DNA of 64,000 nucleotides. Source: Centruroides vittatus. Taxonomy: Eukaryota. Of this stretch, positions 2,126 to 61,149 are shown piece by piece. The notes beneath the pieces were generated by a model that saw only the letters and a list, made by a program, of their open reading frames with translations, made no database searches and was not told the DNA's origin. How positions within the stretch are numbered: the stretch's first letter is position 1; every line of letters starts with the position of its first letter. The stretch is taken from positions 60,099 through 124,098 of the forward strand of contig NW_027122668.1 of assembly GCF_030686945.1 (NCBI RefSeq), in the 5' to 3' direction. Position numbers and translations under genes: made by a program.

Positions 2126-4568
2126 AAGATTAAATAGAAAAAAAATTAATTAAATTTAAGGTTTTAGTTTAAATGTTAGTATGACAAGGAAAAAAAAATT
2201 AAAAAACCTCTTGCCTTCTTATACTACGTTTGTAAATTGAAACTAAAACCTTAAATTTAAATGATACTTCAGAAATAGCAAAGGAAAAAGTCGTTCAGAT
2301 CTCTTGCGAAGCGACGCTTTTTCCTTTGCATCCTTGCCCACACCGAACGAGACGATCCCACTCGTTGGAAAAGAGAGGAATGATCGAAACATTCCTCCCC
2401 TCCCAGTGCAGCAAAAATGATGTCAACATGGAGACATTTCACTTTTTGGAACAAGTCCGAACAGCGAAATGCCTCCTCTCCGTTCAACGCGGAACAGAGA
2501 ATGCTGTCGACACCTTTTATTCTTGAAGTCGATCCCGTGAAGAAAGAACCCCTTTCGCAATTGATGGAAGAGAGTTCCTCTCCCCGCTCAAAGGGGGAAA
2601 AGGCTCTCTCTTCATCCATTGAGGAAGGAGAACGCCCTTCACATTTCTTCATCTTGTTGGGCCGCAGCCACCGCCAAAACCGCCAGTCCTTCATTCTGTA
2701 AAGAAAGAAAAAATATATATATATATACTGTATATTAATGGGATTCGGATATACTTAATGCAGAAAAAGTTCACGACAAATCGGAATTCGAATAGCTCGC
2801 GTTAGATCCTACCGGAAATTGCTAGAACGTTCCAACTGTATTTGCAGTAGAGACGACCGACCCGGAACGAAGAAACTCTCTTACGTGTAATTTGTATTTG
2901 TGCGACAGAAAATTAAAGACACGCATGCGCGTAGCCATGCGGAAAAGGCACTCGAGCCCAAGTCGTAACAAGTCTTTCGTTCTAGAGCAATTTACCCTAA
3001 CGTGTACCGTACGTCACATAAACGCAACGACGGCACTTAAAAGGGTTTCGTGCGAAGAAATTGCAAACGAGTCGAGCAAAACACAAGACAAACGTACGAA
3101 GAAGCGAAACGTGCCCACAGCCCAATTCGACATTCGGGACACGAATGTTTAAGTGGCACAAAGCATTGGCAGAGGGTTACGTAAGTGTGGAAGATCGACT
3201 GCACTCGGAAAAGACCACCTCGTGGAAAGAGACAAAGAGCCTAAGGAAAGGAATTCTCTGTGTCCAGCCTGTACACATAACTGTTAAGTGTATTAGTATT
3301 AGATGTGTTTGCAGACAATTTAATTCTGGCAAAATAAGCCATTGAAAAGCGTTGTAACTAATACATAAATTGCATGGAGAAGTCGGAGGTCAAAGGGCGA
3401 AATTTTTGACCTGTCCAAGGAACATCCCATGCTTCAGAATACGGTCTCCGTCCATCAATGTTACCAGAGTATATTTTAGTTAAATTACGAGGAATTCGTA
3501 TTTAAAGTTAGTATTAAATAATTTTTAATTAAATTTCTATAAATAATCTTTATTCTTTGACCGTGTTTATAAAATATAAATGAATTAATTACGAAAATAA
3601 ACCAATGAGCAAATACTTAATCCATTTACGGCCTTCGGTCGCATTCCAATGTGGCGGCTCGTTTAAAAGCAAGATTTTCTATAATCGAACGTCCTCTTTA
3701 CCTCGCCTCCCCAAAACTAGAACAAATCGTTCCTCTCGTTCGTCCAGTATTCTCCGATTGACCGACAGCGCAATTTTTACTAAATTTCGTAATATTTCGT
3801 TTATCCGACGCCATTTTAAAAGCGGTTACGTGACGTCATCGAACGTTGGTTATATGAAATATGCGCGTTATAGTTTAGTTACGTAAACGTTAATTAAAGT
3901 GACTTATATATTAAATAAGCGAATTTTATGAATTTACCTGCCCCAAAGAAAATATCGTGTACGTATTCTACACCAAGGAATCAAAATATTATAGTTGTTC
4001 TTGTACGGAAATGGAGAAAAGTGATGGGCCTACTTCTCGAAACGACCGATTTAATTTTCTTTTTATAGCTGTTGTTGAAGCAATTTCTGATAATGGAAAA
4101 TACTACAATATGTGGGAGGCAGATGTTGATCTCTTCTTGTCGACGCCACCAGGACATGTTTTAGACTATTAGCCGTTTGCATGCTACACATCAATGCTAC
4201 TGCATACCTATTAGAACCGGCCCCGAGTCGTTCCAAGCGAGACTTTGTCGGCCTCTCATCGATCTTTCTTATGTGTTATATGAAGCCTATAACCTATGGC
4301 CCAAGTTTGGTTAGATTTGTTGAAATCCGGTCGTGTTAGAAATAATTGGCCATTAAGATCCTAAAACGCGTCGTGATCAAAATGGTGTCGATTTCTCACC
4401 GAAATAATATATTATGTAAGGGATATGGTACATTGAAAACCAACTAAAAACAATTTATGTGCAAGTGTCCTGCGTGCAATAAGAAACTGTTTATACGGAA
4501 GTGTCGCTACTTGTTGTACTTTCAACACCTGGTATAACAAGGTGACGGCCGGATGTTTGAGCTGTTAA

Positions 4569-4936: not shown

Positions 4937-7900
4937 ATGTCGGAAACGAAGCAAGAAAACAAGCCACATCGTGTGGCACATAGTGGGAGAAAAGCAGAAA
5001 AGAAGAAAGCAAAGAATCCCCACGTTCAAGACATGACTGCACAGCAACGAAATCCCAAAGCTTTTGCCATTCAATCTGTTGATAAAGCAGCAAGGAAATT
5101 TAGAAGAAAAATGGATATTCAAGAGAAAAAACATCATATACCACTTGTCGATCGAACACCGTTGGAACCACCTCCAATTATAGTTGCTATTGTTGGTCCA
5201 CCAAAAGTTGGTAAAACTACACTTATGAAGTGTTTGGTAAAGAATTTCACTCGTCAAACGTTAACAAATATCAAAGGCCCTGTAACGGTAGTATCAGGAA
5301 AGAAAAGAAGATTGACATTGATTGAATGCAATAATGATATCAATAACATGATTGACATTGCTAAAATTGCAGATTTGGCATTATTGCTTGTGGATGCAAG
5401 TTTTGGATTTGAAATGGAAACTTTCGAATTCCTTAACATATGCCAAGTTCATGGTTTTCCAAGAATTATGGGCGTACTGACGCATTTAGATGTTTTCAAG
5501 AATGCAAAAGCATTAAGAAGAACAAAGAAACAAATGAAACACAGATTTTGGACCGAAATATATCAAGGTGCAAAACTGTTCTATTTGTCGGGTATGATTC
5601 GGGAAGAATATTTGAAAACTGAAGTTCACAATTTGGGAAGATTTATCTCTGTTATGAAATTTAGACCGCTTCAGTGGCAGACATCTCATCCGTACGTTCT
5701 TGTTGATAGAATGGAAGATTTGACTAATTTAGACATCGTTCGAAAAAATCCTGTTGTAGACCGCTGTGTTTGCCTGTATGGATATACCAGAGGAGCACCT
5801 TTAAGAAATAAGAGTCAAGTACATATTCCAGGATGTGGTGATTACCTAATTAAGGAAGTAAGTTTATTGCCTGATCCTTGTCCTCTACCCGATAAAGAAA
5901 AACGTCGATCTTTAAATGAGAAGGAACGTTTAATATATGCTCCGTTATCAGGAATTGGTGGAATAGTTTATGATAAAGATGCTGTTTATATTGAACTAGG
6001 TGGAAGTCATTCTCATACACAAATAAGATCACAACAACCATCTCAAGATTTAGTAAAAATATTAGTTGATACTGAACATTCTATAGACAGTAAAATGGCT
6101 GCCAGTGAATTCAGTTTATTTAGCAATACTAAACCATTAATGGAAGAAGAAATGGACGATTTTCTTAATGAAGATTCTAATTGCAAAAATACAGAATTAA
6201 CTGAAAATAATAGAGAAACAGATAACAAAATACATGAAGAACATACAGAAATTCAGACAGATGAGGATGAAGAAGAATCTGAGAATGAATCATTTATGGA
6301 AGAGAAACCAGTAGATGATGATGTTGTTAATACAAACACTTCTGAAAAATATGCTTTTGCTGACAGTGATGATGATCTACAGTGGGATAAAGATGATATA
6401 GAAAACAATGATGTTAGATCAAAACAGAAAAAAGTAACTTTTGAAGATGATGACGACAAAGAAGAGGAGGAGGAGGAGGGATGCTTGAAATGGAAGGAAA
6501 ATCTGGCCCAGAAAGCAGCTGATACATTTTATGAACGCCAGAAAGATACTAGAAATCTGCATAAACTTGTTTATGAAAATGATCTTTACCAAGATGACGG
6601 TGATAAAGATGATGATGATGATGATGATGATATTTTGAAAGAAGTGAAAAATGATAAAATGAAATCATTTTTAAATGGTAGTGATTGTTCGAAATTTCAA
6701 ATTCCAGTAATGCGAGATTGGCAAGATGAAAGTGTAAGTGATTTCATTAAAGATTGTTTCAGTGTTGGTAAACTGGGATCAGAGGATGATATGATTGCAT
6801 CATCTGAGAAGGATGATGAATTGTTTGGTGATTTTGAAGATCTTGAAATGGAAGATACTGGCAATAATAAAGAAGACGAAAGTGATGATAGTGAAGGTGA
6901 AGAAGAGAATGTAGAAAAGAATGAAGATAAAAAGGAAACAAAAACACCAGAAGAAAAACGAATGGAAAGGAAACGCAAATTGAAAGAAATGTTTGATTCG
7001 GAATATGATAACAAAGATGGAAAATCGTATTATGATACTCTCAAAGAAGAATTGGATCAGCAAGCAAAATTGAACAAAACTGAATTCGATAACATGACTG
7101 ACAATCTGAGAGTGCAGTATGAAGGTTATCGACCAGGAATGTACATCAGAATAGAATTAGATAACATACCCTGTGAATTCGTCACTCATTTTGATCCATC
7201 TTATCCAGTAATTATAGGAGGATTATTAAAAGGAGAAGATTCTATGGGATATGTACAAGTTCGTTTAAAGAAACATCGTTGGTATTCAAAAATTTTGAAG
7301 ACTCGTGATCCTCTAATCATATCATTAGGTTGGCGCAGATTTCAAGTTATGCCTCTTTACTCCATTCAAGATCATAATGCAAGGTATAGGTTATTGAAAT
7401 ACACTCCTCAGCATCTTCATTGTTTTGCTTCATTCTGGGGTCCAATAACACCCCAAAATACTGGTCTTATTGCCGTCCAGTCAGTTTGTGATATTAAACC
7501 AGGTTTCCGAATTGCTGCTACTGGGGTTGTGTTAGGATTGGATAAATCAGTAGAAATAGTGAAAAAGTTGAAACTTTGTGGATATCCATTTAAAATATAT
7601 CGAAAAACAGCATTTATCAAAGACATGTTTCATAGTACGTTGGAGGTAGCAAAATTTGAAGGTGCAGCAATTAGGACAGTCAGCGGGATACGTGGACAAA
7701 TTAAAAAAGCCATTCGTTCACCCGAAGGTGGCTTTCGTGCATCATTTGAAGATAAAATATTATTAAGTGATATCGTATTTTTACGTACATGGTATACCGT
7801 TACAATTCCGAAATTTTATGCAGTTGTGACGTCATTATTACTACCACCCGCACAAAAAGCCAAATGGCAAGGAATGAGGACAGTTGGACAGTTACGTTAT

Positions 7901-8299
7901 GAAAGAGGTCTTCATGCAAAAGTTTCTCAAGATTCTCTCTACACTCCTGTCGAAAGGAAAAAGAGGCATTTTGCTCCTTTAACTATTCCTCGTGACTTAC
8001 AGAAAGAATTACCGTACAGAGATAAACCTAAACTGGAACCCACAAAGAAAACTCCGAGCATCCAAAGTAAGAGAGTGGCAGTTATATTGGAACCACACGA
8101 AAGAGAGGTTGCTAATTTAATGAAAACAATGTCTGCTGTTCATAATGAGAAGATAAAAAGAGAGAGAATTAATATGTGGTTAAGAGTAAAGGCACACAAG
8201 AAAGAAAAAAGAAAATTAGAAGCAAAACAACAACAAAATCAAAGACAGTTGAAAAAAAGAATTTTTCGTATTTTGGGAAAAATTAAAAATAAGAAATAG
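4937..8299 (+). CDS. BMS1: Ribosome biogenesis protein BMS1 homolog (GTPase), apparently intronless CDS of 1120 aa
   Basis: Uninterrupted 1120-aa ORF. The N-terminus carries the Bms1 GTPase core: IVAIVGPPKVGKTTL P-loop, LTHLD, FWTEIYQGAKLFYLSG. Acidic internal low-complexity region and basic C-terminus are typical of BMS1/Bms1p. Length is comparable to fly and human orthologs. Confidence 0.9.
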   Translation: MSETKQENKPHRVAHSGRKAEKKKAKNPHVQDMTAQQRNPKAFAIQSVDKAARKFRRKMDIQEKKHHIPLVDRTPLEPPPIIVAIVGPPKVGKTTLMKCLVKNFTRQTLTNIKGPVTVVSGKKRRLTLIECNNDINNMIDIAKIADLALLLVDASFGFEMETFEFLNICQVHGFPRIMGVLTHLDVFKNAKALRRTKKQMKHRFWTEIYQGAKLFYLSGMIREEYLKTEVHNLGRFISVMKFRPLQWQTSHPYVLVDRMEDLTNLDIVRKNPVVDRCVCLYGYTRGAPLRNKSQVHIPGCGDYLIKEVSLLPDPCPLPDKEKRRSLNEKERLIYAPLSGIGGIVYDKDAVYIELGGSHSHTQIRSQQPSQDLVKILVDTEHSIDSKMAASEFSLFSNTKPLMEEEMDDFLNEDSNCKNTELTENNRETDNKIHEEHTEIQTDEDEEESENESFMEEKPVDDDVVNTNTSEKYAFADSDDDLQWDKDDIENNDVRSKQKKVTFEDDDDKEEEEEEGCLKWKENLAQKAADTFYERQKDTRNLHKLVYENDLYQDDGDKDDDDDDDDILKEVKNDKMKSFLNGSDCSKFQIPVMRDWQDESVSDFIKDCFSVGKLGSEDDMIASSEKDDELFGDFEDLEMEDTGNNKEDESDDSEGEEENVEKNEDKKETKTPEEKRMERKRKLKEMFDSEYDNKDGKSYYDTLKEELDQQAKLNKTEFDNMTDNLRVQYEGYRPGMYIRIELDNIPCEFVTHFDPSYPVIIGGLLKGEDSMGYVQVRLKKHRWYSKILKTRDPLIISLGWRRFQVMPLYSIQDHNARYRLLKYTPQHLHCFASFWGPITPQNTGLIAVQSVCDIKPGFRIAATGVVLGLDKSVEIVKKLKLCGYPFKIYRKTAFIKDMFHSTLEVAKFEGAAIRTVSGIRGQIKKAIRSPEGGFRASFEDKILLSDIVFLRTWYTVTIPKFYAVVTSLLLPPAQKAKWQGMRTVGQLRYERGLHAKVSQDSLYTPVERKKRHFAPLTIPRDLQKELPYRDKPKLEPTKKTPSIQSKRVAVILEPHEREVANLMKTMSAVHNEKIKRERINMWLRVKAHKKEKRKLEAKQQQNQRQLKKRIFRILGKIKNKK

Positions 8300-8386
8300 A
8301 TTTAAGTTATTTTTAAATTAAATATTTGTTTAAAAAAACTACTTTTTAACATTGTTTAAGGAAATATTTTATTTTTTTTTTAAGAA

Positions 8387-8392
8387 AATAAA
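8387..8392 (+). promoter_or_regulatory. Candidate polyadenylation signal AATAAA ~90 nt downstream of the BMS1 stop
   Basis: AATAAA hexamer lies in AT-rich 3' flank. Position is plausible for the BMS1 3'UTR. Confidence 0.3.
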
Positions 8393-9576
8393 ATAATATT
8401 TTGTTGATTGATGTGAGATTTTATGATAATACTTCAATATATTGTTTGTAAGATTAGATTGAAAGTTATTTTAAAACAAATGTTGTTGAGGAAATATTGA
8501 CAATTCTTAATGGCAATACTGAAATTTATATAACAAACATTAGGTTAAACATATAGTCTCTGTAATTTAAGGAATTCTCATAATAAACACATAATATTGT
8601 CAAAATTAGAATACAGTTTTAATAATCTTAATCTAATTATGCATTAAGATGCATTTTTGGAATAGTTATGCAAATCTTTTTATATCAGATGTTTCGGGAT
8701 AATATTTTGAATAGAGAATGTATGCAGTCTTAGAGAAAGGATTGAAGCAGTCCTTGTTTAGAGACTTTTACAGACTGCTAGAGCATGCTATTGGCAATAA
8801 ATAGACAATTATATAAGATGACATTTTAGGTTAACTACACAGCCTTATATTCTACCTCAGTGATGTGACCACTCTATTAGATATCTTTAGCCTGCCACTG
8901 TGGGGAACAGCTCTATAGTTTATTGTTGATACTGTGCAGTATTTCTGTTGAAGTTGCCTGTATTGGGTGTAACTATAGCTGAAGAAATAATTTGCTGTTA
9001 ACTAATCAGTATGTATCAAAATTAAGATTGACACAGGTTTGTATGTTTTATTTTTTACTAGGAAAAGAACTTTAGGAATTGACAGTTTCTGTCAGTTCCT
9101 GCAAAGTTCTTTCCCTAGTAAAAAATAAAACATACAAACCTGTGTCAATCTTAACTGGATTACATAACAAATTTATCACTTTATCATCAAAGGTGACTAC
9201 TGTAGTGACAAAAATTAGTAGTATATATTTCATCACTTTATTTGAAAAGAAACTAGGATATAAAAATAAAGGCACTGTTATGGTCTTGAAATGTGTCTTG
9301 CCTTTAATGGAAGAATGATGTTTACATGTAGATCCAAATTTATGCTTAAGTTATAGCCTTTCAGAAGTACAAATTCTATTATTAAGGAAGATAATTTGTG
9401 CGTTTCAATTTACTGGTTATTTCTGTGTAAACATTTGTAAAAGATGTTAAAAATAAGTCAATAATCTGCAAGACCTATAAATCTCAATTCATTAATGGAA
9501 CAAACTTTTCTTTACAAAAGAAATAAAAACTGATGACTTCAGTTTGTGAGTAATCTCGACAGTATAATCAAATATC

Positions 9577-10080
9577 AAGATCCCACCAGTGGTCGAGTGG
9601 ATAAAACCACCAAACACTGGTAGCTGGTTACGGGTTTGTGCCTAGCCAAGTGGAGTTTTCCAGATTTTCTTTAGGTTTGTAACACCTAAATAAGGGCCAG
9701 TGGTGCATTATCCTAAGATAAGGTGACCAGAAATCCCTGGTTTTGCCAGTTTTTAATGTTTGATTGTAGAATCAATCTTTGGATAGAGCAATTTCATTAG
9801 CATGTCAATATAATAACCAAAGTTTGACCAGTTTTAGGTCCCATTTTCACTGATTCTGAAATGTGTCCTAGTTGTATTGTAAATATTATGGTTAATTGAC
9901 CTAACTTCAGAAAGGGGAATTGCCTGGGAGCCCCAAACCAATGCTTTATAAGAAAATTTTTCCCAAAAAACCCTTGAAGAAAAATGTCTGAAGTAAACAC
10001 TACATGGGGCCCATGAAGTTATAACACGCCACTGATAGGGGCCAGTTTCCCATAAAAGACCTCCTGGGAAACATCAACTA
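9577..10080 (+). mobile_element. SINE-like repeat, full-length copy (~500 bp)
   Basis: Head is GATCCCACCAGTGGTCGAGTGGATAAAACCACC..GGAGTTTTCCAG. Tail is GATAGGGGCCAGTTTCCCATAAAAGACCTCCTGGGAAAC. Both segments recur at 11041-11232 (inverted, internally deleted) and 48166-48350. Confidence 0.5.
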
Positions 10081-11040
10081 TGTGTCACATTACCATCCAA
10101 ATGAATATTGAATCATTTATTATTCATTCCTGTTTATGACTATATCAAACTTGAAAGTCGTCGTTATTTTAATTTCCTGTAAAAATAGTCTTGACAATCC
10201 AGAAGAACAAATTTTCACTTTAGGAGGATACAGGCGGATTGAGCACAGTTGAGCAAAAGCATCATGTGATGAAGCGGCCAGCTCGGGATCTCGCGTGAAA
10301 ACAGTCATGAGTTGTGACTTTCGGAAGCTCCTACTCGTCACTGAAATTCTATCAACCAATATGAGATTTTACGTTTTCCCTTATTTCTCTCGGTCTTGTT
10401 CATTTCCCCTAAATTTAGGGGGAAACTCCTCAGTAGTAGTCATCACTACACATCGCTCTCTGTTGTTCAAATGCTCTCTGTTGAAGCTTTTAAAATCTGG
10501 TGTTTATTCTTGTTTATTAAATCACATGCAATTTCCTGTGACATCGTGGAAACAGAAAACAGGATTTTATTTGTATCTATTGTGACAAGGAATTTATTCA
10601 TTGCTTTACTTTGAAAAGGTATTTGCAAAATATATACGATGACAAATTTATAGATGAAGGAGTTTAGTTGCTTTAGTGGTAAATTAAGATGTAATTTTTT
10701 AGGAAAATATTATCTTTTCATTGGAGTGTTGACTATACATTTACAATATTTGTATAAATTGTTGGTAATACACCAAACTCCTGATTATCTGTGCTAATCA
10801 GTGCATAGAAAACCAGGAAACTACGGATAATCCAACATAGCCCTCTAAACTAAAAAAAACTATTCAGAGGTTTCAAATGAACTTCAATACAGTTGAAATT
10901 TACAACAGTTATAACACAATGTAAGTGTGAGTCCCAAGTTACAGAAGCTGAAATGTATATTTAACCAATAAAGATAAAATGTAGATTTCTTCTATGTACC
11001 TCTATTGTATTGTAGGATTGGATTGTTTGTATATGGCAAC

Positions 11041-11232
11041 GTGACACAAGGGCGATCTGCCAAGGGGGACGTGCCTCCTGGGAGGACTCTCTATGGGAAA
11101 CTGCCCCTATTTAGATGTACAAATGTGAGAAAACATGGAAAACTCCATGTGGCCGGCCCATCGGTTAGGTGCAAACCCACAACTATCAGTATTCGGTGGT
11201 TTTATCCACTTAGCCACTAGTGGGCTTTTAAT
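11041..11232 (-). mobile_element. SINE-like repeat, internally deleted inverted copy
   Basis: The reverse complement matches the head and tail of the 9577-10080 copy (GGTGGTTTTATCCACTTAGCCACTAGTGGG, GGGAAACTGCCCCTAT). Confidence 0.5.
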
Positions 11233-11900
11233 TTTAGGACTAGTACAATATATTTTTTAAATCTGCTGTTTATAAAATAATCCAAGACTAATGACTCACC
11301 TCACTTCTGTCTGTTAGAATTGACATTTGAAGGAAGAAAGAAATGCTGAATGTTGCTTATGATACTTTGTCATTTTACAGTAATTATAATATTTTGATGA
11401 TGCATGGATAACAGGGAGTTTGGTGTATTTATTATAGAGTATATAACAATTATAGCAATCTGTATTCCCTTTAAATATATATCTACCTTACTAATGTTGA
11501 AAGTTCAACCACTTTAAAATTTGTTTATAGTTAAAATGAGGATTTTTCAGCCAATATTCTGAAAAATTGATCATCATCATGGTATTTATCATCATTATCA
11601 TTGTGTTTTGCAGTACATTGTATTCCTAGCTTATAAATGTTAAGGAACCAGAGTATTTTTATTTACAGAAATACAGCATATATCAGATTTGCCAACTGTC
11701 CGTCAAGAAAATCATATAAACAGACTTGAATTTCTCTCTAAAACTAACAAAATTTTCCCTAAAATATAAAATATTACTCTTGACAATCCAGAGAAACAAA
11801 AATTTTTACTTTGGCATGCAGGCAGTATGTGCAAAATTGAACAAAAGCATCATGTAATAAAGCAACCTGCTCAAGGTCTTGCTGTCAGATTCTCATTTAA

Positions 11901-13210
11901 CCCTAGATAACTAAACTTAATTCTCAGTTACATTATAATTACACATTTGTCGAGCAGACCAAGCATTAAAAAACATTAATATCAAAAAAAATTGTTTAAT
12001 AAAAATAGGAACTTGTTACATGGCACAATAGTATGGGTAAGTAGGAACTAAATAAGAACAAAATATTTAGGAAATAAAATTATACACAGTTGCTACTTAT
12101 GTTTACATTATGGGGCTGCAAATTGCATTCTTGCATTTCTTGCAATGGTGTTTTGTCATTCGTCGAGCTTTCGATGGACATAAATAGCATATTTTACGCA
12201 GATTCAACATAGAATGAGTAGGAGCTTCTACACTGGGCACATCACCTAGAATATTTTGAATCATGGTTCTGATATCACGCCTCAAATTCATCGTCTGTAT
12301 CTGCTGTTGTAGCCAGAGCTCCATGAGTTGGTCTCCCATCTTCATAAAGAAATCTTGCCAAGACATCGGATTTATTTTTGTTTCTAATGTTATTAGAGAC
12401 CTAGGTGTAGACAACCACTTAGGTTCATTTTTTCCATATAGAAATCGGGTAGTTGGCTGGAGAACACGTGGATTGCTATTAAGAGTATTTGAGTTTTGAA
12501 TCTTATTTACGCTGATATTCTCACCTTGAGAGTCATCTGATTTTATTTGTGTTCTTTGCCTCTTACTAGGTCGTATGTGATCGTCGTCAGACTCCGAGGA
12601 TCTACTCAACAAATCGGATTCACTGCTAGTGTGCTAGTGTATTTCCTCCTCTAAATTATCCTCAATTTCCCGAAAATGATTCGTCAGATTCCTCCCCATA
12701 CTCGTCTTCCGTTTCTGAATTAATCCATTGTTTTATCTGTTCTTCTTGTCTCCTCAAATCCATCTAAAAATAAAAAACATAGGATATGAGAATAATAAAA
12801 ATATATATATAACAAAAACGAAAAAAAAGACGATCATTGTACCAAAAGTACACATTATATCGCCAGTCTTCAATTATTTCATTAAACATATACTCAAATA
12901 GATATAATTTATCCTGAATATATAAAAAAAACATTCTGTACCTATAAAACAATAAAAATAAATGTAATGTACTGTACATACCTTTGCAACAAAGTTACGT
13001 AGTAACTAAACTTTCATCGAGCAGACAACAGGGATGGCCATAAGTCAATTTCTAATTGACGTGTGAACACAATTGCATTACACACTGCACTGTTTATTCA
13101 AATTATTAAGGTAGAAAAAGAATGACCGGAAAAGGGCACGGCGAAGTTTGTGAACTTCACTTTCGAGCGGAGGTGCGTCGTCGTGTGGACAAATGATTAG
13201 TTATCTAGGG
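11901..13210 (-). mobile_element. Internally deleted piggyBac-like DNA transposon (non-autonomous, 1310 bp) with intact TIRs and TTAA target-site duplication
   Basis: Left end is TTAA|CCCTAGATAACTAAAC, right end is GATTAGTTATCTAGGG|TTAA. These are perfect inverted termini of the CCCTAGA type, flanked by TTAA on both sides (11897-11900 and 13211-13214). The internal ORF has piggyBac N- and C-terminal homology. Confidence 0.8.
12103..12612 (-). CDS. Remnant piggyBac transposase ORF (N-terminal acidic region fused to the C-terminal Cys-rich domain; DDE core deleted)
   Basis: 169 aa. The N-terminus SESDDDH...RFLYGKNEPKWLSTPRS resembles the piggyBac N-terminus (..RGKNKHCWSTSKS..). The C-terminus CYLCPSKARRMTKHHCKKCKNAIC matches the piggyBac CRD (CTYCPSKIRRKANASCKKCKKVIC). 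No catalytic domain lies between them. Confidence 0.7.
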   Translation of the reverse strand: MLSRSSESDDDHIRPSKRQRTQIKSDDSQGENISVNKIQNSNTLNSNPRVLQPTTRFLYGKNEPKWLSTPRSLITLETKINPMSWQDFFMKMGDQLMELWLQQQIQTMNLRRDIRTMIQNILGDVPSVEAPTHSMLNLRKICYLCPSKARRMTKHHCKKCKNAICSPIM

Positions 13211-13744: not shown

Positions 13745-14596
13745 TTATTAAAGTTTAAATATATACATCACTTAGATGATGATAATCATCTATTTTCATA
13801 CATAGCGTATCTGACAGCATAAGAAACACATATACATCGATTAGGTCTATACATTATTATTCATAACTATTTACATTTACTGTTATAAGGTAAAAGGTCT
13901 GTACATTAGTATCACATTATTAACATTTACATAACCCAAGCCAACAAACTCCATCGTGGAGTGCTAGGGTTAACCCTAAGAAAAGCAGATAGACATGAGA
14001 CAAATTGTCATTCATCATTAAAGATGAACTCCTCACCATTATGTCTCCATATATAATCTTCCGTCCCCTTGTAATATTCCTTCCACTCATTTTCACTTAA
14101 TGTCTCATTATCATACTTAAGTTTTAGCTTCGCTTCCTCTCTTATTTTGTTAATTATTATTCTAGAGCTAATTTTTCTTTTATCGAAAATTGCTAGACAT
14201 CTGGCTTTCCATAAGTGTCTTTTCGTCAGTCCAACCATCCAGTTCATCAGATACGAACTTTGATTTCTTATTTTATAATTAATTTGATACTTAATATTGA
14301 TCCACTCTAATTTTACCCTACAAATACGATTTACCCATGACCATACCGATCTCGCAGGGTTACATTCATAAAAAACATGGATAATTGTCTCATCCCTTCC
14401 ACAAATAGAGCATCGAGCATTACGACGCCTGTGGTATCTACGTAAATAATCTCTCGTCATTACTACATTCAGTAGAATTCTCCACGATGTCTCTCTCCAT
14501 TCAGATGGTAGTATATTAATATTTTTCCATACAGCAATCCAGTTTATATACTTATCCTTCACACTTTCACTAGTGCATTGTTTGAACAAATATTTA
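13745..14596 (-). mobile_element. 5'-truncated non-LTR retrotransposon (LINE) 3' fragment, ORF2 C-terminal zf-RVT-type (C-terminal zinc-binding domain of reverse transcriptases) tail
   Basis: ORF 14008-14589(-) carries WRILLNVVMTRDYLRRYHRRRNARCSICGRDETIIHVFYECNPARSVWSW (zf-RVT CCHC pattern C..C..ET..H.F..C). The element ends in an A-rich tail (..TAATAAAA) on the minus strand. It is flanked by a perfect 15-bp direct repeat. Confidence 0.75.
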
Positions 14597-50013: not shown

Positions 50014-50385
50014 TATTCTCACTTTTCGATACATGCATTTTCACCAATCTCTCCACAACGGTTGGCACCAATTAGAATATTGGCTGCAGTAGCATGACTA
50101 ATGATCGGGAGCGATGACACTTACCATAATTAATAACCCGAGAGACTATGCCAAAGCGTCAACAATTCGTCTCGGTAAACACTGAAGGATTTATTTCAAA
50201 TTTCGCAATATGCCGACTTTTTTTGTGTATTTCTTCTTACATCTGATTTGCCGAATGCCAACGTTCCGAAACGATGTAATGCTGAACGCTCAAAATGCGA
50301 AACCTAACCAGCAGTAACATTACTAAATAAACGAATTTGGCATAAACAAAGTACTTCACGTACGTTTGTAGATTTTTCGTTCGCT

Positions 50386-50468
50386 CCGTCGATAGCTCAG
50401 GTGGTAGAGCGGTGGACTGTAGGGGAGTAGTTATCCATATGTCGGTGGTTCAAATCCGCCTCGACGGA
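50386..50468 (+). tRNA. tRNA-Tyr (anticodon GTA) with ~10-nt intron
   Basis: CCGTCGATAGCTCAGGTGGTAGAGCGGTGGACTGTAG[gggagtagtt]ATCCATATGTCGGTGGTTCAAATCCGCCTCGACGGA. Acceptor stem CCGTCGA/TCGACGG, GTA anticodon in a 7-nt loop, intron immediately 3' of position 37, T-arm GGTGG-TTCAAAT-CCGCC. Near-identical to vertebrate and insect tRNA-Tyr. Confidence 0.9.
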
Positions 50469-50473
50469 GGAAC

Positions 50474-54575: not shown

Positions 54576-54658
54576 AAAAAAGTCCTCCGTCGAGGCGGAT
54601 TTGAACCACCGACTTATGGATAACTACTCCACTACAGTCCACCGCTCTACCAGCTGAG
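54576..54658 (-). tRNA. tRNA-Tyr (GTA) second copy, intron-containing, convergent with the first
   Basis: Reverse complement reads CCGTCGATAGCTCAGCTGGTAGAGCGGTGGACTGTAG[tggagtagtt]ATCCATAAGTCGGTGGTTCAAATCCGCCTCGACGGA. It differs from the + copy by 3 substitutions. Confidence 0.9.
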
Positions 54659-55040
54659 CTATCGACGGAACGAACGAAAATTCTACAAACGTACGTGAAG
54701 TACTTTGTTTCTGCCAAACTCGTTTATTCAGTAATGTTGCTGCTGGTTAGGTTTCGCATTTTGAGCGTTCAGCATTACACCGTTCCGGGACGTTGGCATT
54801 CGGCAAATCAGATGTAAGAAGAAATACACAAAAAAGTCGGCATATTGCGAAATTTGAAATAAATCCTTCAGTGTTTACCGAGACGAATTGTTGACGCTTT
54901 GGCATAGTCTCTCGGGTTATTAATTATGGTAAGTATCATCGCTCCCGATCATTCGTCATGCTACTGCAGCCAATATTTTAATTGGTGCCAACCGTTGTGG
55001 AGAGATTGGTGAAAATGCTTGTATCGAAAAATGCGATTAC

Positions 55041-55122
55041 GACGAGGTGGCCGAGCGGTTAAGGCGATGGACTGCTAATCCATTGGGTTATACCCGCGTG
55101 GGTTCGAATCCCACCCTCGTCG
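55041..55122 (+). tRNA. tRNA-Ser (anticodon GCT) with long variable arm
   Basis: GACGAGGTGGCCGAGCGGTTAAGGCGATGGACTGCTAATCCATTGGGTTATACCCGCGTGGGTTCGAATCCCACCCTCGTCG. Canonical class-II tRNA-Ser(AGY), followed by a T7 run. Confidence 0.9.
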
Positions 55123-55129
55123 TTTTTTT
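55123..55129 (+). terminator. Pol III terminator T7 after tRNA-Ser
   Basis: TTTTTTT directly abuts the tRNA 3' end. Confidence 0.6.
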
Positions 55130-57341: not shown

Positions 57342-58378
57342 CTAAAATATACAAAAGTTAATTCATTACTAAAGTATTTCACACTATATTTGTATTGCGC
57401 GATATGTTTTTTAATGTTTATTATTTAATATGTACAAAAGTCTTTATTAAATTATGGTGCATTAATATTTTCGTTAACTGTAATATCAGGTCATTTAAAA
57501 AGGTGTTCTCAATGTTTAATGTCATCACTTGAAATATATAAGGCTGGGTGAAAAATAACTAGGCATTGATAAATCACTGTAATTACTATCTGTCTAATGC
57601 AAATATGATGAAAATTATTTGTCTTATACCATGTTGAGTGCAAATATAGTTGAAATCTTAAATATAGACACCGGCGCCATCAACTAATAATACGTTCCTC
57701 GGATCGTGTTGTGAATGAATGGACACTTCTCTGTGAGTCTGCAGTCGAATCTGTAGCCATTTTAGTTTCAAATGACAATTCTGATTGTTTTCGGCCGAAT
57801 TGTGGCATGGTGTCTTTCACAGTACGCTACTATTTCTACACTGCAATCACTGATTTCCATACCTGATAGCGTGCAGCAATCTGCGCTCCTCCCGAACAGA
57901 CAAATGGTCGGCTATCTTTTGTGCCACTGAGCGTGTAATTTCACTCGGTCACTAATAATAATAATAATACTTTATTAACATAATAGGCATAGCTTGTTAC
58001 AATGGGGGTATATATAATTCCAACAATAACCAAAATGTAAGCGAACATCAGATAACAATATTGAATGTTAACTTCCTGTTTTGACATTATAAAGGATTTC
58101 ATAAATTTATATTCATGATTTGTTTGACATTGTTGTATAAAAGTATAGATTTCTCTAGTGGTAGCTTGATCAAATTTGCTATACATATTACTTTCGTTTT
58201 TTTACTTATCACTTAAACCGCTAATGGTTTTCAACTCTGGTCTTTCTTCCTTATCACAATCATAGAATAAATGCATTTTAGTTAAAAAATTTCCGACACC
58301 AAGGACATATAGTGTGTGCAAATTCTATGAATTTATCTTCTATAATTAAACCTTTATGATTGAGTCTCAGCTGTGTAA

Positions 58379-60480
58379 ATTTTTTTTTTTTTTAACTTTA
58401 AATGCTAGATTAAGAAAATAGTAGTTGTTAACATAAGGGTAATGAAATAGTTTGTTATAATAAAACTTGTTATTCTTTTTCAGCACATCCTCAGTATCTT
58501 GAACAACGGAATACTCTATGACTCTATATATTACTTGATTAATTAATTTGCTGATTGTTATTTCTGAGGTAATCGATGACTAGGTCAATAGAAAAACTAT
58601 ATCCATTCAAAATTAGGGACAGTTGCGTTATCCAATTTCGATTTATATTTATTCTCTTTGATCTGTCATCTAAGGCAATTAATTACAAGTCTTATAGATA
58701 AATCTTCTGTGTTTATGATCTTTTGTAGCCATTTAATATATCCTTTAACCAAGACTGTGTTTAGCTTAAATCTTTTGAATTCTAAACGAGGTACACTTTC
58801 TGGCGTTTTATATTCTAATTGGTACAATTTGCGAATAAAAATATTTTAGATTTTTTCTAAATCGTTAAATTTGTTTCGAGTCCAAATTGGAGCAGCATAG
58901 CACAACGCGTATAACACTACATAATTAAATAGTAGAAAGTGGGTCCTATTATTTATCATCTTCGCTTTGCAAAATAAGGTTATTAAATTATTCATCAGAT
59001 TTATAGACTTTGCAACAATGTATCTGTAGTATTTATCAAAGGATAAATTATACATCCATGTAATTCCCAAAAATTTATTTTCGTTGAGGATTTTTATTTT
59101 TTCATTATTGATGTAGAAAGACATAGCTTTTTTTCGACAATCTTGTCCCATTTCTGAAGATCATAACTTCGGATTTACTAAAGTTTATTTTGACTTTTAA
59201 ATTATTTAAGTTTAATATCCACGTTTCAGTGATGCCGATGACTATAAAATATTTTGTACTTGTGGTATGCAATTTACTTCTAAGTCCCTGACAATTCCAA
59301 AAGCTAATTAAAATTTCGTTAGGTTTGATCGTAGCGGCCGATGCACTATTCTCAATATCGCTGTAATTGACCAACTTTGAATCATTGTCAATCTTATTTA
59401 TATCGTTATAATCTATGCAAACAGTTTCCTTGATATTAGATAGTATATTTGTTGTTGTAACTATGTTTTTTGTGTTAGACTGATAGTTTGATCTAAAAAT
59501 AGATTAATTGGTATGATTTCATTGGTGTACATGTCAAGAGTATATTTGAGATTATTTTTAATGAAATGATCTTCTCTAGTTAATATTCTTGTGTCCGCCG
59601 AAAATTCAGCTTTGATTTTATTAATGAGGTGTCTTCTTCTAATTCTGGATCTATAGCATAAGTCTGACTTCATAAAAATTTTATTAGTCTCGTTTTCCAA
59701 GTTGGATTTTTTCAGCCAAAATTTTTTTTAAATGAGATTTCTGTCTCCGACCGATGACGTAGTTATTTTTATTACTTGGTCTTTTAAACCACTTTTTCCT
59801 AATTGAATTAAATTGTCAATTTCTATATTCTTAAAGAATTCATTGTGTCAGAATTGGATATTATTACTATCATTATAAATTATTATTACTATCATTATAA
59901 ATTCTGTCCAATTCAAATTCGAACGTACCTTTTAAGTTTAGGCCCAACTTTGTTTTGTCTTCACATATTTGGATTTTATGTTCAATGGTTTTCACATCTT
60001 CTTTGGTTCTGATATTATTTTGTTCTATACGGCTGATTTCGTATTTAATTGACCCAATTTCCTGGTTTAACAGCTCAAATTTCCTTTGAATTAAGTCGTA
60101 AATTGACTTGAGCGAGTACTTCGGATCATTGTCGCTTGTTTGATCAGACTGATCCGATGATTCGAAGTAATCAATAATCTTGGATTTTTTCGTTGTCTCT
60201 CTATGATCTTTTATCTTTTCTTCAATTATATTTTCTTCACTTATTAAATCCATTAATTGACTCGTATTTTCTGAGCTTTGAGCAATTACCTTTTTCAGTC
60301 GTCCACGCCCCTTCTTTTGCATAACTGATTGGCTTGTACTTGGCGGAGAATGTTGCAACGGGCCCGGATTTGTTTCCACACCGGAAATTATTAACAATAA
60401 TAGTATCAAATTCAATGAAAACGAATTCATCATGAGACTGTTAAACGATTGGTATCGTATTTTAAAACAAACAATTTGTC
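58379..60480 (-). mobile_element. Internally deleted non-LTR retrotransposon (ORF1 with N-terminal 2A-like peptide; APE start fused to RT C-terminal region; poly(A) tail)
   Basis: ORF1 at 59873-60433. ORF 59105-59374 has an APE-like N-terminus (ISFWNCQGLRSKL...ITETW) that runs directly into the RT distal region (KINFSKSEVMIFRNG). ORF 58846-59151 carries the RT thumb region (KFLGITW..D...VRP-like). The T14 run on plus at 58379-58392 is a poly(A) tail on minus. 5' and 3' boundaries are approximate. Confidence 0.55.
59873..60433 (-). CDS. LINE ORF1-like protein with N-terminal hydrophobic tract plus a 2A-like GVETNPGP motif, followed by a coiled-coil region
   Basis: MMNSFSLNLILLLLIISGVETNPGP (motif nt 60359-60382). 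The downstream region is Lys/Glu-rich with heptad-like segments (LLNQEIGSIKYEISRIEQNN), as in LINE ORF1 proteins. Confidence 0.55.
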   Translation of the reverse strand: MMNSFSLNLILLLLIISGVETNPGPLQHSPPSTSQSVMQKKGRGRLKKVIAQSSENTSQLMDLISEENIIEEKIKDHRETTKKSKIIDYFESSDQSDQTSDNDPKYSLKSIYDLIQRKFELLNQEIGSIKYEISRIEQNNIRTKEDVKTIEHKIQICEDKTKLGLNLKGTFEFELDRIYNDSNNNL

Positions 60481-61149
60481 ATAGCACTTGTTTAACACTC
60501 TGAACCAAAAAGTCACCAGCACCGACGATGGTTTACAGCGCCCCGGATGACTCGGTCACTATCCATACCAACCATGCGAAAATTTTAAATTCCATTGATT
60601 GATGTATATGCACACAAATTTTATTATTACAAAAATTATAGCGATTTCTCTTTACCTAGACCTAGTTACTTTCCACCCATCCTTATATATATATAAACTT
60701 ATATAGAGAAAAGATATATTGCTACTAATGTATTCTATAATAGAGAGTAACTTATAAAAACCTCTACAATTATTTTATTTTCAAGATAAATTGTTACATA
60801 AAAATGATTTTCATTCATTATAACTATAAGTATTTAAAAATTACTAACCAGTAATGACTTTTCCAACAAATCTATTGACTTGAAAATTCTTCTAGAGATT
60901 AATAGTTTTCCCAAATTTTCTCTGGAATCTTCAGATAAAAATTTATTATGGTTTTTATAAATAAATGAAAAAACATATTAAAATAATTAATAAATTAAAA
61001 GTTTTACTTAAAATGGCTGATAGTATTTTAATTAAAATTATGTATACACTGTATTTTTTAATTGGCCTATCAGTGAACGTTTTAACTGTTTTACATAATT
61101 CTGCAGAGACGTAGTCTCAATAAAAGGGTGTCTGTGCGAACAAACACTG

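Follow-up and report, generated by a model that had tools for sequence, protein, structure and literature searches.

StopGo or 2A-like peptides near the N-terminus of proteins encoded by long interspersed nuclear elements (LINEs) have been described before. In five ticks and a limpet, nine clusters of such peptides have been found, always ahead of the coiled coil of proteins resembling ORF1p, the product of the first open reading frame (ORF1) of a LINE; these proteins are made of a coiled coil, an RNA recognition motif (RRM) and a C-terminal domain (bioRxiv 10.64898/2026.06.17.732966 = PMC13405545). Protein abundance was lowered in 70% of the ORF1p cases tested, the lowering being correlated with the presence of at least 3 Leu residues at positions -19 to -10, and -7GxExNPGP+1 was recognised as a non-canonical core (PMC13405545). 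StopGo-type motifs had been reported by Odon et al. in 2013 in LINEs of the L1Tc/Ingi, Rex1, L2, CR1 and Crack groups, 40-80 aa into ORF2 and mostly in elements lacking ORF1; activity varied from copy to copy, some motifs had decayed, and either translational down-regulation or the separation of products was proposed as their role (PMC3708506). The only ORF1 case of that set, L2A-1_NVe (aa 72-102), was inactive (PMC3708506). This work deals with a LINE copy found on the minus strand of a 64-kb stretch of the Centruroides vittatus genome (the window, meaning the whole stretch analysed), and with the hydrophobic leader that carries the sequence GVETNPGP at the very N-terminus of its ORF1 protein. 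C. vittatus is the striped bark scorpion, a member of the Buthidae. By sequence criteria the window motif is confirmed to be a real StopGo/2A-like motif, and the leader is probably a conserved StopGo/2A-like N-terminus of the ORF1p of a Centruroides LINE, acting in cis as a translational throttle or as a processing device. 2A-like leaders on LINE ORF1 proteins have already been reported; a scorpion host and a glycine register are added here, and the range of such leaders, known from ticks and a limpet, is extended to scorpions.

Likeness to the tick and limpet proteins consists in a 2A-like peptide placed before a coiled coil, in a chelicerate host, and in a Leu-rich upstream helix. In contrast to that set the host is a scorpion of the family Buthidae, and neither "scorpion" nor "Centruroides" occurs in the main text of PMC13405545. 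A literature search found nothing linking Centruroides or scorpions with 2A-like sequences. A phmmer search with the window ORF1 gave Centruroides proteins only, so the scorpion ORF1 is not detectably homologous to the tick ORF1p over its N-terminal 186 aa. The LINEs of Odon et al. share with the window copy a StopGo-type motif near a protein N-terminus, but the Centruroides element is of the classical two-ORF type, with the motif at residues 18-25 of its ORF1p and G instead of D at position 12 (p12, or -7) of the peptide. The preliminary description of the window had mentioned N-terminal 2A-like peptides in apurinic/apyrimidinic endonuclease (APE)-type retrotransposons of several invertebrates. 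A precedent does exist; it is provided for ORF1p by the ticks and the limpet, whereas the motifs surveyed in 2013 lie almost always in ORF2.

The ORF maps to 59873-60433 on the minus strand and encodes 186 aa from an ATG at 60433-60431. Its N-terminus reads MMNSFSLNLILLLLIISGVETNPGP, or MMNSFSLNLILLLLIISGVETNPGPLQHSPP if more residues are included. GVETNPGP, a non-canonical core octapeptide of G(V/I)ExNPGP form, corresponds to 60382-60359, and the NPGP codons to 60370-60359; 16 residues are N-terminal to the core. The leader with its 2A-like peptide, M1 to P25, spans 60433-60359 on the same strand, as indicated by the window sequence and by family conservation, and reads MMNSFSLNLILLLLIISGVETNPG followed by P; the bond predicted to be skipped joins G24 (60364-60362) to P25 (60361-60359). 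Coordinates and residues were re-read as first described, and the hydrophobic tract said to precede NPGP was found to be LNLILLLLII, a core of 10 residues with a mean Kyte-Doolittle hydropathy of 3.3. Six Leu residues fall at -19 to -10 in the window leader (4-6 over the scorpion leaders, 4-5 in the relatives described below). StopGo peptides are expected to carry at least about 10 further hydrophobic or Leu-rich residues upstream, so that the whole peptide measures at least about 18-22 aa, and the window leader provides this context. It also has V or I at p13 and E at p14, as do the relatives, in which the core is G(V/I)E(P/S)NPGP.

A chance origin of NPGP in an AT-rich ORF, or its derivation from an endogenous fragment of an RNA-virus polyprotein, has been considered. 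A bare NPGP is unremarkable, since 0.13-0.18 are expected per window given the window composition (32% GC), and the one at 60370-60359 is the sole NPGP in the six-frame translation of the 64 kb. The expectation for the full core (D/G/C/N)(V/I)ExNPGP falls however to about 7e-5, and the expanded core was seen in none of 300 windows simulated by a first-order Markov model; the motif is therefore not a chance match. The same alignment column is occupied by the motif in 6 of 8 homologs. The motif is located 116 nt from the conserved 5' end of a LINE, upstream of regions homologous to ORF1, APE and reverse transcriptase (RT), and within a target-site duplication (TSD), and no viral protein homology was seen. 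Chance and viral origins are thus refuted, and the probability left to them is negligible.

The residue at p12 deserves attention. Glycine does not fit the classical D(V/I)ExNPGP consensus, but fits both the expanded (D/G/C/N)(V/I)ExNPGP and the -7GxExNPGP+1 forms. A survey of 131,941 representative ORFs of RNA viruses counted 1,207 octapeptides with G at p12 versus 908 with D, and functional D12G variants had been confirmed in earlier work (via PMC12846837). The same survey (Li et al. 2026) defines a "motif 5" class with an L-rich upstream region ending in (A/G/S)G, G at p12 and an association with P at p15 (PMC12846837), which the scorpion consensus ...LL(I/L)(I/M)(A/S/G)G(V/I)E(P/S/T)NPGP fits residue for residue; p15 is P in most Centruroides copies. 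Another close viral class with G at p12 is class X3 of bioRxiv 10.64898/2026.09.24.754024, where a class X peptide with G at -7 reached 97% StopGo activity. Viral StopGo peptides are internal linkers of polyproteins, whereas the scorpion motif lies at the very start, in the first 24-35 residues, of an ORF carried by a cellular transposon. Class B 2A peptides, Wxxx(L/V)xxEG(I/V)Ex(N/H)PGP (Rao et al. 2025, PMC12338488), also have G at -7 and (I/V)ExNPGP. The window copy, in contrast, has Ile at -15 and resembles class A in its Leu-rich upstream region, and the Trp of some scorpion copies is located at about -26. Membership in class B was rejected, no family copy having Trp at -15.

Relatives of the window ORF1 were retrieved by an exhaustive phmmer search against 1.84 billion representative proteins. 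Eight true relatives were identified (E from 2e-31 to 8e-9, 31-47% identity), all from C. vittatus or C. sculpturatus, and a ninth match, P0009, was discarded as a spurious, repetitive bacterial-type protein. A word-indexed homolog search with the window ORF1 gave no match, and a profile search with alignment A1 returned, among the matches listed, only three members already known, along with at least 8,000 low-complexity candidates. In alignment A1 the relatives are colinear with the window ORF from the leader, through a conserved PL(P/S)RSPQ...MQK(R/K)GRGRPRK segment and an acidic linker, to the coiled coil, in agreement with the ORF1-like coiled-coil product that had been surmised downstream of the motif. 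One of the relatives is encoded at a C. sculpturatus locus (L001, KZ494901.1, approximately 86.6-91.3 kb), which has a 5' untranslated region (UTR) and both ORFs open. ORF1 of L001 is found at 7947-8945 (332 aa), and ORF2, in a different frame, at 8987-12445 (1152 aa). ORF2 contains Exo_endo_phos (6.6e-7) and RVT_1 (2.9e-27) domains; its matches include human LINE-1 ORF2p (E = 8e-24) and R2 proteins (1e-23). An ORF1 followed by an ORF2 in a separate frame, with endonuclease and RT domains, identifies by sequence the family as a classical two-ORF, APE-type retrotransposon lacking long terminal repeats (non-LTR), and the attribution of the window ORF to a retroelement is borne out. A single-ORF organisation, suggested by the Gnomon gene models P0002 and P0011, in which ORF1 is fused to ORF2, was rejected and the fused models are regarded as artefacts, since ORF1 and ORF2 lie in different frames in the L001 DNA, with stop codons between them.

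The intact ORF1 of L001 gave no match in Pfam, the ORF1 profile found generic coiled coils only among PDB sequences, and Foldseek found no significant match for a low-confidence ORF1 model. The family is so far known only from Centruroides. The closest ORF2 relatives outside the genus are about 25% identical and reside in metagenome or Logan contigs; their ORF1 proteins differ in having PHD/RNase H or GDSL-lipase domains. Two loci of these relatives were scanned, and neither showed a 2A motif. Sequence comparisons hint at an affinity of the family to the CR1/L2-like group, and hint that the leader may have been acquired in a lineage-specific manner.

NPGP is found at the same site in 6 of the 8 relatives, five times in the (A/G)G(V/I)ExNPGP form, so that the motif is a feature of the family rather than an accident of one copy. 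Leaders are intact in P0002 and P0011 (...NRLSLDLIIILLIIAGVEPNPGP), P0003 (MWIFVNRLILELIICLLLIGGIEPNPGP), P0004 (...LDLIIMLLIIAGVESNPGP) and L001 (MEKTEYSLMLKLIICLLLMAGIEPNPGP), the locus of gene model P0008, which is truncated to MAGIEPNPGP. P0001, a truncated or variant model, starts with MAMLELNPGP and keeps NPGP in the form MLELNPGP. The motif has decayed to NPSP in P0005 and to NPES in P0006, and P0007 has no leader. Individual copies can thus lose the motif, as dead transposon copies would be expected to do. The common pattern is a hydrophobic Leu/Ile-rich stretch ending in (A/S/G)G, the G of which is the -7 residue of G(V/I)ExNPGP. Whether G at -7 in the window copy was a natural variant or a D-to-G decay mutation had been left undecided in the preliminary description. 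All family copies whose leader is complete have glycine here, and the decay alternative is rejected on this basis; judging from these sequences, G is the usual state of the family, and coincides with a StopGo variant published as functional (PMC12846837).

Within the N-terminal half of ORF1, conservation is strongest in the leader (14 residues, mean pairwise identity 0.69) and in the core (0.70); the corresponding values are 0.56 in the next 20 residues, 0.33 in the linker and 0.54 in the coiled coil. When the window copy and L001 are compared codon by codon over the core, two of the eight codons are identical, four differ by synonymous changes (GGT/GGA, CCG/CCA, GGC/GGT and CCG/CCT, for G, P, G and P), and two by nonsynonymous changes. 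The latter both fall at the positions left free by the motif, V/I and x, and none affects the six constrained codons. Since constrained codons have changed only synonymously, the pattern indicates selection on the peptide, not on the nucleotide sequence, of the core. The G(V/I)ExNPGP register is thus kept by selection in a cellular transposon family, and not in RNA viruses alone.

How the leader could act may be outlined for intact members of the family such as L001, for which we infer a mechanism of release followed by resumption or drop-off. A ribosome would initiate at the ORF1 AUG, and the nascent leader, still wholly within the exit tunnel, would block formation of the Gly-Pro bond and be released after Gly. 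Translation may then resume, giving an ORF1p that begins with Pro (PL(P/S)RSPQ...), or may not, in which case the output of ORF1p would be lowered. The fraction of chains produced by read-through would bear a hydrophobic N-terminus similar to a signal sequence. Being apparently intact, L001 could serve as a model for the role of a StopGo peptide at the very start of ORF1p.

A Met is found exactly 14 residues past the skipped bond in every copy containing the region (approximately 60322-60284, minus strand, in the window; approximately 8067-8100 in L001), and is directly followed by an AT-hook-like K(R/K)GRGRPRK sequence, decayed to KKGRGRLKK in the window copy. Pfam AT_hook gives a weak match in P0001 (E = 0.031). 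Judged by their position and composition, the +14 Met could be a reinitiation site, and the AT hook a nucleic-acid-binding element of ORF1p.

Several considerations weigh against the leader being a throttle or processing device. The D12A change abolishes F2A activity, aspartate being essential in canonical viral 2As; no D12 substitution was tolerated in two viral 2A peptides subjected to deep mutational scanning, one of which was P2A; and chimeric upstream contexts are often inactive. The intolerance of canonical 2As implies that peptides of the glycine type depend for their activity on an appropriate upstream context. Only 43 of 580 contigs (7.4%) from reverse-transcribing elements had a highly active 2A peptide in HEK293T cells, and no activity assay of any Centruroides family member was found in the literature. 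Two of the 8 relatives, in a small sample, have lost NPGP, and P0001 has MLELNPGP.

According to a different view, the motif is an inert relic, inherited from an ancestral 2A-like sequence of a virus or of another LINE, with little or no recoding activity. The low proportion of active peptides just mentioned speaks in its favor. So does the finding that many near-consensus LINE 2A-like sequences are inactive or weak in vitro, most of the CR1 and Crack sequences tested among them (PMC3708506), and both the window copy and two of the relatives are clearly decaying. Yet family members differ by 53-69% in protein sequence, and have nevertheless preserved the constrained core and the register of the leader, with synonymous substitutions in the core. 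Preservation of this kind is not expected without selection in active lineages, and the intact L001, with both ORFs open, has a perfect core. An inert relic is therefore held to be rather unlikely.

A leader of similar build is found in the sea urchin. SpNLR2A6 (MDGFCLLYLLLILLMRSGDVETNPGP; Roulston et al. 2016, PMC4981915) opens, as does the window protein, with a leader of 25-26 aa, in which a hydrophobic L/I core is followed by SG and VETNPGP. It differs in being hosted by an immune receptor, and in that its core, SGDVETNPGP, is one residue longer and has D at p12. The 26-aa leader of SpNLR2A6 recodes with an efficiency of about 80%, and acts as a signal sequence when made recoding-dead (PMC4981915). 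The scorpion leader might accordingly be regarded mainly as a signal sequence for the endoplasmic reticulum (ER), or as a membrane anchor, with NPGP being no more than part of its polar C-terminal region and conservation being due to targeting instead of recoding. A weaker version of this explanation assumes a dual function, in which skipped chains are cytosolic and read-through chains secretory, as with the SpNLR2A leaders of the sea urchin. The layout is that of a signal peptide, with a short N-terminal region, LNLILLLLII, small residues (SG or AG), and VET followed by NPG; in SpNLR2A6 a signal-peptidase site is predicted by SignalP between VET and NPG, and the recoding-dead mutant sent the reporter to the Golgi and into secretion (PMC4981915). 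Signal peptides, in turn, do not need an exact E-x-N-P-G-P and do not as a rule conserve one, and here its residues have been kept by way of synonymous changes in proteins only 31-47% identical overall. In addition, a LINE would need its ORF1p both in the cytosol, for binding to its own RNA, and in the nucleus, and ER targeting alone would have no evident rationale. The explanation, its dual-function version included, is regarded as improbable.

Returning to the StopGo leader as throttle or processing device, it may be asked whether it is a regulatory switch with three ribosome outcomes rather than a plain cleavage site. This is a speculative extension, to be viewed with considerable doubt. 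Resumption would give the Pro-starting ORF1p; after drop-off the leader would amount to an upstream ORF in frame with ORF1, and reinitiation might occur at the +14 Met; read-through would give an ORF1p with a hydrophobic anchor of the type recognised by the signal recognition particle. Were this the case, the amount of ORF1p and its location, and through them the rate of retrotransposition, would be governed by the balance among the outcomes, perhaps sensitive to stress or to eEF2 activity. Arachnid LINEs would then possess a device for self-restraint, in a register one residue shorter than the classical SGD(V/I)E core.

The window copy is itself dead. ORF1 is broken, about 700 aa of ORF2 are deleted, and the motif is for these reasons without function in this copy. 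The element extends from 57955 to 60549 (2,595 bp), with a full-length 5' end and a deleted interior. It is bordered by a 12-bp TSD (TAGTGACCGAGT on the element strand), the 5' copy of which lies at 60550-60561 and is an exact direct repeat of the 3' copy at 57943-57954, placed directly after a (TAT)5 tail. The match of a 12-mer is by itself not decisive, and it is the placement of the repeats at both termini of the element that constitutes the evidence: the 5' copy lies 6 nt upstream of the start of the 5' UTR homology with L001 and L002 (GGGCGCTG...; alignment A3). An exact 12-bp TSD placed immediately outside the (TAT)5 tail on one side and the conserved 5' end on the other is a hallmark of LINE insertion. 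The 5' UTR (60434-60549, minus strand) is 116 nt long and has a GC-rich start, GGGGCGCTGTAAACCATCGTCGGTGCTGGTGAC, which is conserved in C. sculpturatus copies, as seen in the alignment of the 5' ends of the window copy, L001 and L002. It contains a short upstream ORF of 6 codons, ATGACAAATTGTTTGTTTTAA, at 60484-60464 on the minus strand, about 30 nt ahead of the ORF1 start.

The open N-terminal part of ORF1 (59873-60433, minus strand) comprises the leader and 2A-like peptide, the decayed AT-hook-like sequence, the acidic linker and the coiled coil; in tblastn searches, aa 7-190 of L001 ORF1 align to 60424-59879. A 22-bp tandem duplication at 59859-59902, detected by a repeat search, closes the frame, and about 15 ORF1 residues are absent at its junction (tblastn gap between aa 190 and 206 of L001 ORF1; alignment A1). 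The C-terminal remnant of ORF1, a putatively RRM-like part plus the C-terminal region, follows at 59491-59865 (minus strand; L001 ORF1 aa 206-332), frame-shifted and interrupted by a stop, and reads in frame translations IQLGKSGLKDQVIKITT...RNLI(stop)KKFW...DLCYRSRIRRRHL. The APE and RT fragments that had been noticed downstream on the same strand were mapped by tblastn with L001 ORF2. The N-terminus of the APE endonuclease (ISFWNCQGLRSKL...VIGITETWI) is found at 59200-59407 (L001 ORF2 aa 15-110, the alignment covering 59407-59132), and the C-terminal end of the RT domain with the region after it (KINFSKSEVMIFRNG...NKFLGITW...YAAPIW) at 58609-59194 (aa 786-971), both on the minus strand. ORF2 residues from about 86 to 785 are deleted between the two pieces, and ITETWI of the endonuclease abuts the end of the RT domain. 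A C-terminal ORF2 remnant, with an internal A13 run and a Cys motif (CPWC...), is located at 58124-58537 (minus strand; aa 1002-1139). Pfam searches on the window fragments gave no match.

The 3' UTR (57955-58123, minus strand) terminates in a tail of 15 nt, the trinucleotide repeat (TAT)5/(ATT)n at 57955-57969. Its last 40 nt or so resemble, by eye, the L001 stretch after the ORF2 stop (...GTAACA.GC...GCCTA.TAT..AATAAAGT), although a MAFFT alignment of the two 3' ends is poor. A poly(A) tail had initially been assigned to the element, but this assignment does not hold: the A13 run near 58390 is coding sequence of the ORF2 remnant, its KKKK aligning with FNVKKFF of L001, and the true 3' end is the trinucleotide repeat, followed by the TSD. 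No second copy of the element was detected in the window by self-comparison or by tblastn with L001 proteins.

The family is mis-annotated in NCBI gene models. Compared with the L001 ORF at 7947-8945, model P0008 has its start misplaced to an internal Met (MAGIEPNPGP) and lacks 22 coiled-coil codons, which are treated as intronic. Several gene models of the family have been named "PF3D7_1120000-like" owing to low-complexity similarity. Several Centruroides models, some carrying this name or labelled "uncharacterized" and some truncated so as to start with MAGIEPNPGP, are LINE ORF1 sequences. A peculiar case is P0005 (XP_067138478.1), a C. vittatus protein annotated as "chromatin target of PRMT1 protein", which embeds the decayed leader and the N-terminal half of ORF1 (...LLLIAGIEPNPSPLPRSPQQ...). 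The LINE part sits between Arg/Gly-rich regions, and the C-terminal region matches Pfam FoP_duplication (Friend of PRMT1). P0005 may contain an exonised fragment of the transposon; otherwise the model is an artefact of annotation.

Other features are found in the window away from the element. An intronless ORF of 1120 aa at 4937-8299 on the plus strand, identical to C. vittatus XP_067140076.1, corresponds to the ribosome-biogenesis GTPase BMS1, with RIBIOP_C and AARP2CN domains. The gene may be a retrogene. A single-exon BMS1 is unusual for an arthropod. An ORF of 193 aa at 14008-14589 on the minus strand has a zf-RVT domain (E = 6e-10); it represents the C-terminal end of another non-LTR retrotransposon, which has no relation to the family carrying the 2A-like motif. 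tRNA genes are predicted for Arg-TCG (2328-2419, minus strand), Leu-TAG (50385-50469, plus strand), Thr-AGT (54585-54657, minus strand) and Ser-GCT (55040-55123, plus strand), the predicted Thr and Ser genes being less than 500 bp apart.

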